A stretch of DNA of 64,000 nt from Escherichia coli O157:H7. Lineage in GTDB: Bacteria > Pseudomonadota > Gammaproteobacteria > Enterobacterales > Enterobacteriaceae. The stretch lies in NCBI RefSeq assembly GCF_013167455.1, contig NZ_CP038328.1. The stretch is one strand, 5' to 3'. Under the pieces are notes generated by a model that searched no databases, was not told the origin of the DNA, and worked only from the letters and a program-made list of their open reading frames with translations. The translations under genes and the position numbers were made by a program. Shown one piece after another: positions 29,741-55,515 of the stretch (positions within the stretch are counted from its first letter, which is position 1; each line of letters begins with the position of its first letter).

Positions 29741-31441
29741 ATGCGACTGCTCAACCGCCTTAACCAGTATCAACGTCTGTGGCAACCTTCCGCCGGAAAG
29801 CCGCAAACCGTCACCGTCAGCGAACTGGCCGAACGCTGTTTTTGCAGCGAACGCCATGTTCGTACGCTGTTGCGTCAGGCACAGGAAGCGGGATGGCTGG
29901 AGTGGCAGGCGCAGTCAGGACGCGGAAAGCGCGGACAATTACGCTTTCTGGTCACGCCAGAATCGCTACGCAATGCGATGATGGAAAAGGCACTGGAAAC
30001 CGGAAAGCAGCAAGATGTGCTGGAGCTGGCGCAACTGGCCCCAGGTGAGCTGCGCACTCTGTTACAGCCGTTTATGGGCGGACAATGGCAAAACGATACA
30101 CCCACGTTGCGTATTCCCTACTATCGCCCGCTCGAACCGCTACAACCGGGCTTTTTGCCCGGCCGTGCCGAGCAGCATCTCGCCGGACAGATATTTTCCG
30201 GCCTGACCCGCTTCGATAATAATACCCAGCGCCCGATTGGCGATTTAGCGCATCACTGGGAAACCTCTGCTGACGGGTTACGCTGGGACTTTTATCTTCG
30301 TTCAACCCTACACTGGCATAACGGCGATGCAGTAAAAGCCTCACACTTACACCAGCGATTATTGATGCTGTTACAACTGCCAGCACTGGATCAATTATTT
30401 ATTAGCGTGAAGCGTATTGAGGTCACCCATCCGCAGTGTCTGACCTTCTTTTTACATCGCCCCGATTACTGGCTTGCGCACCGGCTGGCGAGCTATTGCA
30501 GCCATCTGGCGCATCCGCAATTCCCACTGATTGGCACGGGTCCTTTTCGCTTAACACAATTCACAGCTGAACTGGTGCGCCTGGAAAGCCATGATTATTA
30601 CCATTTACGTCATCCGCTGCTTAAAGCGGTTGAGTACTGGATAACTCCGCCGCTTTTCGAAAAAGATTTGGGAACCAGTTGTCGGCATCCCGTGCAAATC
30701 ACCATCGGCAAACCGGAGGAGCTGCAACGGGTCAGCCAGGTCAGTAGTGGCATCAGTTTAGGTTTTTGCTATTTAACGTTGCGCAAAAGTCCCCGACTCT
30801 CCCTCTGGCAGGCGCGAAAAGTGATCTCCATTATTCATCAATCCGGTTTATTACAAACGTTAGAAGTCGGAGAAAACCTGATCACCGCCAGTCATGCATT
30901 ACTGCCAGGCTGGACTATTCCGCATTGGCAAGTACCGGATGAAGTCAAACTACCGAAAACCTTGACGCTGGTTTATCACCTCCCGATAGAACTTCATACC
31001 ATGGCAGAACGCCTACAGGCGACACTGGCAGCGGAAGGCTGTGAACTCACAATTATTTTTCATAACGCAAAAAACTGGGACGACACGACCCTACTGGCAC
31101 ACGCAGACCTCATGATGGGCGACAGATTAATTGGCGAAGCACCGGAATATACTCTGGAGCAATGGCTGCGCTGCGATCCGCTGTGGCCACATGTTTTCGA
31201 CGCTCCAGCATACGCACATCTACAATCGACACTGGACGCGGTGCAAGTAATGCCTGATGAGGAAAACCGATTTAATGCCCTGAAAGCGGTTTTTAGCCAG
31301 TTAATGACAGATGCGACGCTGACGCCGCTGTTCAACTATCACTATCGCATTAGTGCCCCTCCCGGCGTGAACGGTGTGCGACTGACACCGCGCGGCTGGT
31401 TTGAATTTACCGAAGCCTGGCTTCCCGCGCCGTCGCAATGA
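29741..31441 (+). CDS. ybaE: uncharacterized protein YbaE (SgrR C-terminal-like / solute-binding-like), 566 aa
   Basis: Internal start MRLLNRLNQYQRLWQPSAGKPQTVTVSELAERCFCSERHVRTLLRQAQEAGWLEWQ.. Confidence 0.85.
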   Translation: MRLLNRLNQYQRLWQPSAGKPQTVTVSELAERCFCSERHVRTLLRQAQEAGWLEWQAQSGRGKRGQLRFLVTPESLRNAMMEKALETGKQQDVLELAQLAPGELRTLLQPFMGGQWQNDTPTLRIPYYRPLEPLQPGFLPGRAEQHLAGQIFSGLTRFDNNTQRPIGDLAHHWETSADGLRWDFYLRSTLHWHNGDAVKASHLHQRLLMLLQLPALDQLFISVKRIEVTHPQCLTFFLHRPDYWLAHRLASYCSHLAHPQFPLIGTGPFRLTQFTAELVRLESHDYYHLRHPLLKAVEYWITPPLFEKDLGTSCRHPVQITIGKPEELQRVSQVSSGISLGFCYLTLRKSPRLSLWQARKVISIIHQSGLLQTLEVGENLITASHALLPGWTIPHWQVPDEVKLPKTLTLVYHLPIELHTMAERLQATLAAEGCELTIIFHNAKNWDDTTLLAHADLMMGDRLIGEAPEYTLEQWLRCDPLWPHVFDAPAYAHLQSTLDAVQVMPDEENRFNALKAVFSQLMTDATLTPLFNYHYRISAPPGVNGVRLTPRGWFEFTEAWLPAPSQ

Positions 31442-32201: not shown

Positions 32202-32215
32202 TTATTCCGGGTGTC

Positions 32216-32240
32216 GCCGGATGCGGCTTGAGCATCCGGC
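32216..32240. repeat. REP-like palindrome / bidirectional terminator hairpin GCCGGATGC-GGCTTGA-GCATCCGGC between convergent queC and fadM
   Basis: Perfect 9-bp inverted repeat read directly from the sequence. Confidence 0.6.
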
Positions 32241-32252
32241 ACCACAAAACGT

Positions 32253-42896: not shown

Positions 42897-43475
42897 ATGT
42901 TCAAAAAAATCCTCTTCCCGTTAGTTGCTCTGTTTATGCTTGCAGGATGCGCAAGACCGCCAACAACTATTGAAGTTTCCCCGACGATTACACTGCCACA
43001 GCAGGATCCAAGCCTGATGGGCGTCACCGTAAGCATTAATGGTGCCGATCAGCGTACCGATCAGGCGCTGGCAAAAGTCACCCGCGATAATCAAATCGTT
43101 ACCCTGACCGCCTCCCGCGATCTGCGTTTCCTGCTGCAAGAAGTGCTGGAAAAACAGATGACCGCGCGTGGTTACATGGTTGGTCCGAATGGCCCGGTTA
43201 ATCTGCAAATCATCGTTAGCCAGCTGTATGCTGACGTGTCCCAGGGCAACGTGCGCTACAACATCGCTACCAAAGCGGATATCGCCATCATCGCTACCGC
43301 GCAGAATGGCAACAAAATGACCAAAAACTATCGTGCCAGCTACAACGTTGAAGGTGCGTTCCAGGCCTCCAACAAAAATATCGCCGATGCGGTTAACAGT
43401 GTGCTGACCGATACCATCGCTGATATGTCTCAGGACACCAGCATTCACGAATTCATCAAGCAGAACGCGCGTTAA
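42897..43475 (+). CDS. yajG: lipoprotein YajG, 192 aa
   Basis: Internal start MFKKILFPLVALFMLAGCARPP (lipobox) within the 245-aa ORF. Confidence 0.88.
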   Translation: MFKKILFPLVALFMLAGCARPPTTIEVSPTITLPQQDPSLMGVTVSINGADQRTDQALAKVTRDNQIVTLTASRDLRFLLQEVLEKQMTARGYMVGPNGPVNLQIIVSQLYADVSQGNVRYNIATKADIAIIATAQNGNKMTKNYRASYNVEGAFQASNKNIADAVNSVLTDTIADMSQDTSIHEFIKQNAR

Positions 43476-50397: not shown

Positions 50398-51762
50398 ATG
50401 AACGATTATAAAATGACGCCAGGTGAGCGGCGCGCGACCTGGGGTTTAGGGACCGTATTCTCGTTGCGCATGCTGGGCATGTTCATGGTTCTGCCGGTTC
50501 TGACCACGTACGGCATGGCTCTGCAAGGTGCCAGCGAAGCATTAATCGGTATTGCCATTGGTATTTATGGTCTGACTCAGGCCGTTTTTCAGATTCCGTT
50601 TGGCCTGCTTTCCGACCGCATTGGTCGCAAACCATTAATTGTCGGTGGGCTGGCAGTGTTTGCCGCCGGTAGCGTTATCGCTGCGCTCTCTGACTCCATC
50701 TGGGGAATTATTCTGGGTCGGGCGCTACAAGGCTCCGGTGCGATTGCCGCTGCCGTTATGGCGCTGCTTTCCGATCTCACGCGCGAACAAAACCGCACCA
50801 AAGCAATGGCGTTTATCGGCGTGAGCTTTGGCATTACCTTTGCCATTGCGATGGTGCTTGGCCCGATCATCACTCACAAACTTGGGCTGCACGCGCTGTT
50901 CTGGATGATCGCTATTCTGGCAACGACCGGCATTGCGTTGACCATTTGGGTTGTGCCCAACAGTAGCACTCACGTACTTAATCGTGAGTCCGGAATGGTG
51001 AAAGGCAGTTTCAGTAAGGTGCTGGCGGAACCGCGGCTGCTGAAACTCAACTTTGGCATTATGTGTCTGCATATTTTGCTGATGTCGACGTTTGTTGCCC
51101 TGCCCGGACAACTGGCTGATGCGGGGTTCCCGGCGGCTGAACACTGGAAGGTCTATCTGGCGACAATGCTAATCGCCTTTGGCTCGGTCGTGCCTTTCAT
51201 TATCTACGCTGAAGTTAAGCGCAAAATGAAGCAAGTCTTTGTCTTCTGCGTCGGGTTGATCGTGGTTGCGGAAATTGTGTTGAGGAACGCGCAAACGCAG
51301 TTCTGGCAACTGGTGGTCGGCGTGCAGCTTTTCTTTGTGGCGTTTAATTTGATGGAAGCCCTCCTGCCCTCACTTATCAGTAAAGAGTCGCCAGCAGGTT
51401 ACAAAGGTACGGCGATGGGTGTTTACTCCACCAGCCAGTTTCTTGGCGTGGCGATTGGCGGTTCGCTGGGCGGCTGGATTGACGGCATGTTTGACGGTCA
51501 GGGGGTATTTCTCGCTGGCGCAATGCTGGCCGCAGTGTGGCTGGCAGTCGCCAGTACCATGAAAGAACCGCCGTATGTCAGCAGTTTGCGCATTGAAATC
51601 CCGGCGAACATTGCCGCAAACGAGGCGTTAAAAGTGCGTTTGCTGGAAACTGAAGGCATCAAAGAAGTGTTGATTGCAGAAGAAGAACATTCAGCTTATG
51701 TGAAAATCGACAGCAAAGTGACGAATCGCTTTGATGTTGAACAGGCAATTCGCCAGGCATAA
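50398..51762 (+). CDS. yajR: MFS transporter YajR, 454 aa
   Basis: Internal start MNDYKMTPGERRATWGLGTVFSLRMLGMFMVLPVLTTYG.. within the 520-aa ORF; 12-TM MFS plus C-terminal cytoplasmic domain. Confidence 0.9.
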   Translation: MNDYKMTPGERRATWGLGTVFSLRMLGMFMVLPVLTTYGMALQGASEALIGIAIGIYGLTQAVFQIPFGLLSDRIGRKPLIVGGLAVFAAGSVIAALSDSIWGIILGRALQGSGAIAAAVMALLSDLTREQNRTKAMAFIGVSFGITFAIAMVLGPIITHKLGLHALFWMIAILATTGIALTIWVVPNSSTHVLNRESGMVKGSFSKVLAEPRLLKLNFGIMCLHILLMSTFVALPGQLADAGFPAAEHWKVYLATMLIAFGSVVPFIIYAEVKRKMKQVFVFCVGLIVVAEIVLRNAQTQFWQLVVGVQLFFVAFNLMEALLPSLISKESPAGYKGTAMGVYSTSQFLGVAIGGSLGGWIDGMFDGQGVFLAGAMLAAVWLAVASTMKEPPYVSSLRIEIPANIAANEALKVRLLETEGIKEVLIAEEEHSAYVKIDSKVTNRFDVEQAIRQA

Positions 51763-51777
51763 AAGCGAGGCGAAATT

Positions 51778-51867
51778 GCCTGCTGCGCTACGCTTATCAG
51801 GCCTACTAAGTTCCTGATTTACAAAACTTTGTAGGCCGAACCAGGCGTTCATGCCGCATCTGACATG
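51778..51867. repeat. pair of inverted REP (BIME-like) elements between yajR and yajQ
   Basis: GCCTGCTGCGCTACGCTTATCAGGCCTAC ... GTAGGCCGAACCAGGCGTTCATGCCGCATCTGACATG, typical REP consensus halves in opposite orientation. Confidence 0.7.
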
Positions 51868-51889
51868 AACAAAGCGCAGGTTGTCGCGA

Positions 51890-52381
51890 TTAATCGCGGA
51901 AGTTTTTGAACTGGAACGGCTGACCGAGATCGCCACCGCGCACCATCGCCATGACAGCCTGTAAATCATCACGAGATTTGCCCGTCACACGGATCTCATC
52001 GCCCTGAATTTGCGCCTGCACTTTCAGTTTGCTGTCTTTGATCATCTTGACGATTTTTTTCTGAGTGGCGCTCTCAATGCCCTGTTTCAGTTTCGCTTCC
52101 ACAAACCAGGTTTTACCGCTATGAACGATATTTTCCGGTACATCCAGTGAACTGCCTTCAATGCCGCGCTTCAGCAGCTTGGCACGCAGAATATCCAGCA
52201 ACTGATTGACCTGGAAGTCGGACTCGCTCAACACTTTGATGGTTTTGCTGGCGTCGTTCAGCTCAAATGAGGCTTCAACGTTACGGAAGTCAAAACGGGA
52301 CTCCACTTCGCGGCTCGCGTTATCGACCGCGTTACGTGCTTCCTGAAGATCAACTTCAGAGACAATATCGAAAGATGGCAT
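51890..52381 (-). CDS. yajQ: nucleotide-binding protein YajQ (UPF0234), 163 aa
   Basis: Internal start [43 protein letters not shown].. inside the 219-aa ORF. Confidence 0.9.
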
Positions 52382-52548
52382 CTTTTCCTCTCCCTTCATT
52401 TTTGATGCGAAGCATAATACCTGCAAAGTTAAATAACCAACAGTCCTGCACCAGGACGTATCCCTTAATTGTGCATAGTCGCAACAGCATGCACAATTAA
52501 GGGATAGCCTTATTGAACACCCGGAGTGGTTGCGGGTGAGGAGGAACA

Positions 52549-54013
<1,465 letters not shown>

Positions 54014-54014
54014 T

Positions 54015-54053
54015 GTCGGATGCGGCAAACGTCGCATCTGACCAGATGCGACG
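54015..54053. repeat. REP-like palindromic element between yajL and thiI (contains CGTCGCATC-TGACCA-GATGCGACG)
   Basis: Perfect 9-bp inverted repeat plus adjacent GGATGCGGC motif read directly. Confidence 0.5.
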
Positions 54054-54066
54054 TAAAAACCACAAA

Positions 54067-55515
54067 TTACGGACGATACACCTTCACATTCTTAAAGCCC
54101 TGTTCGCGTAGATAGAGCGCCTGCAGGCGGCTCATTACCCCGCGCTCACACCACAGTAGCCAGGTTCTGTTCTGGTCGAGATCGCCAAATTTGGTGCTCA
54201 ACTTGTAGAACGGCAGTGAAACCACATCAATCCCTTCGACTTTCAGTGGCTTATCTTCCTGTTCATCGACAGAACGGATATCGAGAATCACGTCGTTCGG
54301 GCCGAAGTCATTGACGGTTTCCACTTCCACCACTTCCTGCCCGGTCTGCTGGGCGATTTCGCGGATATCAACGTTATTCGCTTCTTCAACCACTTTATCG
54401 AGAATGCTGAAGTCGAATTTCTCTTCTTCCGCTTCAATCTTCGACTTAACCGCTTTCACCGTCGGGCTTTTGGAGATCACACCGCAGTATTCCGGCATAG
54501 TACGGGCAAAGTCTTCGGTGCCAATCTGGCGAGCCAGGTTGATGATGTGCTCTTTGTCGTAAGAGATCAGCGGACGCAGGATCAGCGTATCAGAGACGTT
54601 ATCAATCAGGCGCAGGTTGGTCAGCGTCTGACTGGACACCTGGCCGAGCGCTTCGCCGGTGACCAGCGCCTGTACGCCGTAACGTTCAGCCACTTTAGAC
54701 GCGGCACGCACCATCATACGTTTGAGGATAACGCCCATCTGACCGTCGTCGATTTTCTCGAGAATTTCCCCGACTACCGGCTCGAAATTAATAGCGACAA
54801 AACGCACGCGGTGGGAGCTGCCAAAGCGGTTCCACAGATAATGTGCCACCTGACGCACGCCAATTTCATGCGCTGCGCCGCCGAGGTTAAAGAAGCAGTA
54901 ATGCACGCGGCAGCCGCGACGCATCAACATATAACTGGAAACACCGGAGTCGAAACCACCGGAAATGAGCGACAGCACATCTTCCTGGGTGCCGATCGGG
55001 AAACCGCCAATACCTTCGTAGCGGCCTTTAATCAGCAGGAGACGATCGTCTTCCACTTCCAGATGGACAGTCACATCCGGATTGGTCAGCTTCACGCGCG
55101 CGGATTCAATATGCTGATTTAAACCGCCGCCGACGTAACGTTCCACATCAATCGAGCTAAAATCATGTTTGCCACGGCGCTTCACGCGTACGCAGAAGGT
55201 TTTGCCATCCAGCTGATCGCGATACTGAACCAACGCTTTCTCGAAAATATCGTGCATGTCGGTAAACGGCACGTCTTCGACTTCGAGAATATGGTGGATA
55301 CCAGGAATACGGGTCAGGGCGTCGCGAATAGTCAGACGCTGGTTTTCATCTTTCGCGCGAACTTCGATGTTATCCCAGTGGCGGACGACAGCGAGCGTCT
55401 CATCATAGTGCTTTAAAACGTTACGAATGTTCCCGGTAAGGATTTTTATAAAGCGCAAGCGCACAGATTGGCTTTTGATGGTGATTTCCGGGAACAATTT
55501 AATGATAAACTTCAT
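54067..55515 (-). CDS. thiI: tRNA 4-thiouridine synthase / thiamine biosynthesis protein ThiI, 482 aa
   Basis: [35 protein letters not shown].. (THUMP), PP-loop SGGFDS, C-terminal rhodanese-like domain. Confidence 0.96.

Follow-up and report, generated by a model that had tools for sequence, protein, structure and literature searches.

Known REP, BIME, and IS621 systems

REPs are imperfect palindromes of 30-40 nt, which in E. coli match one of the type consensuses y, z1, and z2. Both REP and BIME elements have been known since the 1980s, and the convention of naming units REP or RIP is taken to separate the IHF-binding elements from the others. The defining features of a REP are a GTAG located 5′ of the hairpin foot and a mismatch in the hairpin stem (PMC3333891). 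In BIME-1 (RIB/RIP) of Escherichia coli, a z1 unit and a y unit are paired in inverse orientation as a single copy and enclose a long conserved linker, L, of about 35 nt, which frequently contains an IHF site (PMC3333891). The transposase TnpAREP binds and cleaves REPs, with cleavage at CC/T in iREPs, and requires the AA/GC mismatch in the stem (PMC3333891). REPs at the 3′ ends of genes guard the upstream mRNA from 3′-to-5′ decay and partly terminate transcription, and those between convergent genes have been proposed to act both as bidirectional terminators and as decay blocks (bioRxiv 10.64898/2026.03.23.713779). In the case of the insertion sequence IS621, a member of the IS110 family, ATCAGGC-CT-AC is a naturally observed bridge-RNA target, and the K-12-type sequence of the yajR-yajQ locus is on the list of natural targets (Durrant et al. 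2024).

The element described here occupies the spacer between yajR and yajQ of E. coli O157:H7 and is already known: it has the K-12 name REP40a, belongs to a textbook family, and lies at a locus on the IS621 target list. It resembles BIME-1 in its unit types, head-to-head orientation, single copy, and right-flank motif, and like the BIME-1 elements of E. coli it lies at gene 3′ ends. Compared with the canonical BIME-1, the linker has 24 instead of ~35 nt and is without its core, the stem of the y unit is eroded, and the left flank is mostly missing. The ortholog in K-12 MG1655 is REP40 (unit REP40a), which agrees with the O157 element in its units, orientation, and linker length. The z1 units of the two strains are identical, but a handful of substitutions are found in the linker, the y unit, and both flanks, one of which, in the linker, creates the exact IHF-consensus match of O157. 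BIME-2 arrays, such as REP325 (yjdM-yjdN), belong to the same REP superfamily and have the y unit in common with the yajR-yajQ element, but they contain z2 units and short linkers in variable tandem arrays (12 units of REP325 in K-12), whereas the yajR-yajQ element contains z1 in a single pair. The exact 11-nt ATCAGGCCTAC is shared with the natural IS621 targets in REPs, but the site is unoccupied in the O157:H7 DNA. The finding is therefore best described as correct but ordinary, and it matters little beyond correct annotation.

Location of the element

The window, which is the whole analyzed stretch of 64 kb from E. coli O157:H7, contains the following genes around the spacer:

50398-51762, plus strand: yajR (RefSeq annotation transferred from the matching record)
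51763-51889: spacer of 127 nt between the convergent genes yajR and yajQ
51890-52381, minus strand: yajQ (RefSeq annotation transferred from the matching record)
Beyond yajQ, downstream: panE, yajL (ends at 54013), and thiI (stop at 54067)

Over the 901 bases surrounding the spacer, identity with E. coli O157:H7 genomes is 100%. A BIME-1-type element fills nearly the whole spacer and lies wholly between the two stop codons. In annotations, the entire yajR-yajQ spacer should be marked as a repeat instead of unique regulatory DNA. REPs are scarce in the window: one pair is present in 64 kb, where the published figure of 584 REPs for the 4.64-Mb K-12 genome would predict about 8 units. The K-12 record used for comparison (NC_000913.3) lists no feature of the repeat_region type, and even REP325 with its 12 units is unannotated there, so that the missing REP annotation in this record is uninformative.

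Identification as a BIME-1 copy

We scanned both strands of the 64-kb window by edit distance with the three E. coli REP consensuses (y, z1, and z2). These consensuses agree with Table 1 of Nunvar et al. 2010 and with the REP queries, three in number, given by Durrant et al. 2024. Applied to the REP325 array of K-12, they fit the majority of its 12 units with 0-1 edits. The exact z1 consensus occurs at at least 120 loci across Escherichia, Citrobacter, and Pseudocitrobacter genomes, 25 of them being counted in a single E. coli strain. Two REP units stand head-to-head (CTAC...GTAG) within 51778-51867 of the window, in agreement with the first-pass annotation, which had reported inverted REP units between these convergent genes. 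Elsewhere in the 64 kb, no site lies within 6 edits of any REP consensus, and the sole 7-edit match to z1 (43037-43066) has no support from any profile.

A BIME-1 profile HMM was built from 70 distinct copies of other genomes, with the yajR-yajQ locus excluded; the copies were chosen for an exact z1 match and a y unit (at most 3 edits) located 33-36 nt downstream. The consensus of the 70 copies reads TGAGACTGATGACAAACGCAAAATT - z1 - AAGGTTnCTGCAATATATTGAATTTGCAnGATTTT - y - TGAACAAAGCGCACTTTGTCAGCAATCTGA. In the same alignment, the outer flanks of the canonical element are mutually inverted (TGAGACTGATGACAAACGC ... GCGCACTTTGTCAGCAATCTGA), and the left flanks mostly start with TGA. Searched against the 64-kb window with nhmmer, the profile matches 51767-51887 with E=1.6e-28 and 93.8 bits, covering 121 of the 127 spacer bases, including the non-palindromic flank and linker motifs. 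The parts of the element are arranged as follows:

51767-51776, plus strand: remnant of the left-flank motif, GAGGCGAAAT (consensus AACGCAAAAT); the nhmmer alignment starts at model position 15
51777-51806, minus strand: z1 REP unit, read on the minus strand as GTAGGCCTGATAAGCGTAGCGCAGCAGGCA; 1 edit in 30, z1 profile E=1.2e-13
51807-51830, no strand assigned: remnant of the L linker, 24 nt compared with the canonical (modal) 35 nt; 11-column gap in the nhmmer alignment
51831-51865, plus strand: decayed y REP unit, GTAGGCCGAACCAGGCGTTCATGCCGCATCTGACA; 7 edits in 35, y profile E=1.4e-8
51866-51887, plus strand: right-flank motif, TGAACAAAGCGCAGGTTGTCGC (consensus TGAACAAAGCGCACTTTGTCAG); the nhmmer alignment extends to model position 146
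51800-51837, no strand assigned: inter-unit inverted repeat, GGCCTACTAAGTT / AACTTTGTAGGCC, with 13-nt arms that are 92% complementary

The z2 profile also matches the z1 unit, with E=5e-4, far weaker than the z1 profile. When the 99-nt element was used as a BLAST query, a median of at least 32 places per genome was found in 5,425 of the 5,426 complete E. coli genomes, and the element is high-copy, dispersed, and extragenic, as REPs are. The z1 and y units form a single pair in inverse orientation, which is the layout of BIME-1, and no array of the BIME-2 type (z2 and y units with short linkers in tandem) is present at the locus. The long conserved linker of BIME-1 is not retained; since its core is lost and its outer parts still align with L, the element descends from BIME-1 and is not a canonical BIME-1. 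By descent, it belongs to the REP/BIME-1 family. A formal search with REP consensuses and profiles thus returned a strong match, and the REP/BIME assignment of the yajR-yajQ junction by the first-pass annotation is borne out. We are highly confident that the spacer holds a fixed, decaying BIME-1 copy, which corresponds to the unit REP40a (its partner presumably being REP40b). REP40a is listed with the yajQ transcript in a K-12 transcriptome study (PMC10100675). A search of 51000-54500 against Rfam at a permissive threshold gave nothing meaningful.

Anatomy of the two units and the flanks

The z1 unit keeps both hallmarks of a REP, the GTAG (complement CTAC at 51803-51806) and the AA/GC mismatch in the stem. 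Its single edit, from T to G, introduces a further mismatch (A.G) into the lower part of the stem, and the unit folds as ....(((((....(((...)))..))))). with -10.3 kcal/mol compared with -12.9 kcal/mol for the consensus. In the y unit, the GTAG at 51831-51834 (plus strand) is kept, but the canonical stem is gone: the fold reaches -7.1 kcal/mol, compared with -20.9 kcal/mol for the consensus, without the canonical helix, and the stem is too degraded for the AA/GC mismatch to be scored. The 11-nt deletion in the linker takes out the nearly invariant core CAATATATTGA, which we take to be the IHF-binding part. K-12 and six other strains have the identical two-unit layout and the same linker length of 24 nt.

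Of the canonical left flank, only ~10 nt at its end survive, and the place of the remainder is taken by the 3′ end of yajR. The right-flank motif is well kept and ends 2 nt short of the yajQ stop codon; the same motif is found 3′ of the melB BIME-1 in K-12. In RNA folds of the complete spacer, from either strand, the dominant helix is the inter-unit GGCCUAC.../...GUAGGCC and not the single REP hairpins, with energies of -45.8 and -52.2 kcal/mol and z-scores of -3.7 and -4.8 for the two strands. A further small palindrome, TCGCGATTAATCGCGG followed by AAGTTTTTGA, is located at 51884-51899, where it overlaps the yajQ stop codon and is terminator-like for the yajR transcript. In a scan for terminators and promoters, the number of sites did not exceed that in shuffled sequence.

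Variation of the junction among E. coli genomes

The region is present in 5,424 of the 5,426 complete E. coli genomes, which fall into three junction classes that sum to this number:

5,284 genomes (97.4%): colinear junction with the same layout
128 genomes: junction in which a 4.1-kb islet replaces the BIME
12 genomes: junction with IS621 in the z1 unit

A genome was counted as colinear when at least 80% of the query was covered in one place, and the matched length was constant in the sampled rows. Among the 5,284 colinear genomes, no change in REP copy number or length at the junction was found, and no strain has 0, 1, 3, or 4 REP units. The first-pass annotation regarded such elements as hotspots of strain-to-strain rearrangement, which holds only weakly at this junction: the islet (128 genomes) and IS621 (12 genomes) are real structural variants, but 97.4% of the genomes are colinear and the copy number does not change. 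The three states of the junction (BIME, BIME with IS621, and the 4.1-kb islet) are a possible minor strain marker.

The islet carries two genes, encoding a SEL1-like repeat protein and a TPR protein, and the last ~170 nt of yajR in the islet strains are a divergent allele. In E. coli EC8, for example, the islet (record L008, 11854-16000) corresponds to 51590-51889 of the window and replaces both the BIME and the ~170-nt end of yajR. Ordinary terminator-like hairpins are located where the REPs would be. We searched the islet borders for REP remnants and found none; for this reason, the islet cannot be attributed to the REP, and insertion mediated by a REP was rejected, the divergent 3′ end of yajR also arguing against it. 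The islet instead looks like a segment replaced by recombination and not like an insertion into a REP.

The element is more variable across strains than its surroundings, with an identity of about 87-95%, whereas the 901 bases in which it is embedded reach 95-99%. Within E. coli, the y unit is polymorphic in its 3′ arm (window 51855-51865), which reads ATCTGAC, ATTCAGC, or ATTCGGC and varies via clustered multi-base changes. When paired with GCCGAAT, the 5′ arm, the ATTCGGC allele re-forms a perfect stem of 7 bp, with a fold of -15.0 kcal/mol instead of -7.1 kcal/mol. Outside Escherichia, the orthologous yajR-yajQ spacer of Pseudocitrobacter faecalis (record L059, 9093-9206) also contains a head-to-head REP pair. 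That pair belongs to another subtype, with the stem GCCCGAT...ATCGGGC, and its linker is 18 nt long. The occupancy of this spacer by REPs is therefore either old or recurrent, and the difference in subtype between the Escherichia and Pseudocitrobacter pairs would suggest in-place replacement or concerted evolution. It is conceivable, but in our judgment improbable, that the y polymorphism switches the 3′-end stability of yajQ and yajR, that the deletion junction in O157 re-created an IHF site, and that REPs were replaced in place or evolved in concert.

An empty IS621 target in the z1 unit

The head of the z1 unit contains one further feature:

51796-51806, plus strand: exact IS621 bridge-RNA target ATCAGGCCTAC (CT core: 51803-51804), empty in this strain

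It is the single exact copy of the target in the 64-kb window, and it conforms to the natural target, which reads ATCAGGCCTAC or ATCGGGCCTAC with a CT core. In the 12 complete genomes with an insertion, which come from varied hosts, IS621 interrupts ATCAGGCCTAC at its CT core, within the z1 unit. The junctions read ATCAGGCCT followed by TGTAT (ATCAGGCCT followed by TGTATTATCC...) on one side and ...ACAGTATCT followed by ACAAAG on the other, and these ends agree with the published right-end/left-end junction. In none of the 12 insertions does the junction lie elsewhere than at the CT 51803-51804. In E. coli cS108a (record L133, 2224-3502), the inserted IS621 has a length of 1,279 bp, and the insertion point corresponds to 51804/51805 of the window. 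The comparison shows that the bridge-RNA-guided IS621 recombinase uses the z1 head as a landing site in nature, and the proposal that REPs are targets of IS insertion is confirmed at this locus. An empty and exact target is relevant to IS621-based tools in O157 and to strain typing by IS position.

Function and alternative explanations

In the reading we prefer, the repeats of the BIME-1 family are non-autonomous and are associated with TnpAREP (YafM), the REP-associated tyrosine transposase, and the ancestor of most E. coli already had the yajR-yajQ copy. Since then, the linker core has been lost, as has the y-unit stem in the O157 and K-12 alleles. Such an element would likely act passively, providing 3′-end RNA structure for both convergent transcripts, and its hairpins would slow 3′-to-5′ exonucleases and dampen read-through. 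Given that the y stem is eroded and z1 is weakened, any effect as a stabilizer or terminator would have to come from the hairpin of z1 and from the inter-unit helix.

A convergent junction with a stable fold on both strands (the z-scores of -3.7 and -4.8 given above) and a small hairpin with a T-run at 51884-51899 could also be an ordinary bidirectional intrinsic terminator whose likeness to a REP arose by chance. We give this next to no credence: the profile match with E=1.6e-28 spans 121 of the 127 spacer bases, including motifs that are not palindromic, and no T-run comes after either of the REP units. As to the origin of the spacer, chance likeness is refuted, but terminator activity could coexist with a REP origin. 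The stable RNA fold would also be expected of a small RNA gene in the spacer, and most REPs are reported to be transcribed (PMC4550694). Even so, a small RNA gene is extremely unlikely, since the spacer has no promoter-like site and reaches no Rfam family at threshold, the best being ES036 with 21.8 bits compared with a gathering threshold of 37.6 bits (E=0.53). Another possibility is that the REP origin is right and the copy is still in motion, as a REPIN-like unit excised, copied, or amplified by TnpAREP. In the z1 unit, the GTAG is intact, as is the AA/GC mismatch required by TnpAREP, candidate CC/TAC cleavage motifs are present on both strands, and O157:H7 is among the strains with a tnpAREP region (REPtron) described in PMC3333891. 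Against this stand the constant copy number and length in 5,284 genomes, a y unit without a stem, and the description of BIME-1 as single-copy and non-amplifying (PMC3333891). Current mobility is accordingly not supported by the sequence, and we consider it very unlikely.

The question of whether the element is a functional IHF-binding BIME-1 (RIB/RIP), which would bend the DNA at the 3′ ends of both transcription units, turns on one feature of the linker:

51807-51819, minus strand: predicted IHF-consensus match AATCAGGAACTTA (consensus WATCARNNNNTTR), exact, formed at the deletion junction

This exact match in the O157 allele, within a z1-L-y layout typical of the elements whose L linker often has an IHF site (PMC3333891), speaks for binding. 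However, the 11 nearly invariant bases of the linker are deleted, and the match is a by-product of the junction in a window that holds 8 such matches compared with 4.5 expected by chance. In addition, the K-12 allele has two mismatches to WATCARNNNNTTR by our own reading of the strain alignment. The K-12 unit is also called REP40a and not RIP, which is a weak point that depends on the naming convention. A functional RIB/RIP is on balance unlikely, and IHF binding at this element is unproven and, judged from the sequence, rather unlikely.

Palindromes at the queC-fadM and yajL-thiI junctions

The first-pass annotation also named similar palindromes after queC and yajL:

32213-32249 (palindrome 32216-32240), minus strand: queC-fadM hairpin, with a 9-bp perfect stem GCCGGATGC/GCATCCGGC after GTGG-T
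54010-54056, plus strand: spacer between yajL and thiI, in which two hairpins overlap (54015-54042 and 54030-54053), REP-like by eye

Both are real and stable hairpins, but their similarity to REPs differs: the queC-fadM hairpin is a borderline relic (E about 0.003-0.01), whereas the yajL-thiI hairpins fail the profiles. The spacer between queC and fadM (32202-32252) was derived from K-12 coordinates and the window sequence. Its hairpin is the runner-up in the window for both the y profile (E=0.0026) and the BIME-1 profile (E=0.012), with fold z-scores of -2.8 and -3.4, one per strand. GTGG replaces the GTAG, and the stem has no mismatch. This hairpin is probably a symmetrized relic of a y REP, borderline in its match and now just a hairpin. 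Perfect symmetrized REP-like hairpins of the same kind (GCCGGATGCGGC...GCCGCATCCGGC), without GTAG or mismatch, are found at a few other loci (for example, record L085, 4328-4357, and record L108, 1754-1781).

In the yajL-thiI spacer, the GTAG in front of the hairpins overlaps the yajL stop codon and belongs to the stop-codon context. The hairpins (54015-54053) fold stably, with z-scores of -4.8 and -5.4, one per strand, but their matches to the REP profiles are not significant (E=0.21-0.25), and they lie more than 9 edits from every consensus. The queC-fadM spacer is identical in K-12 and without structural variation in 5,422 of 5,424 genomes, and the yajL-thiI spacer is near-identical in 4 strains and without structural variation in all 5,424. 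The idea of a rearrangement hotspot is further qualified by these two junctions, which have essentially no structural variation in the 5,422-5,424 genomes. A partial z2-like match (31304-31325, minus strand, E=0.002) lies inside the probable coding sequence of ybaE and is probably a chance match or a fragment.
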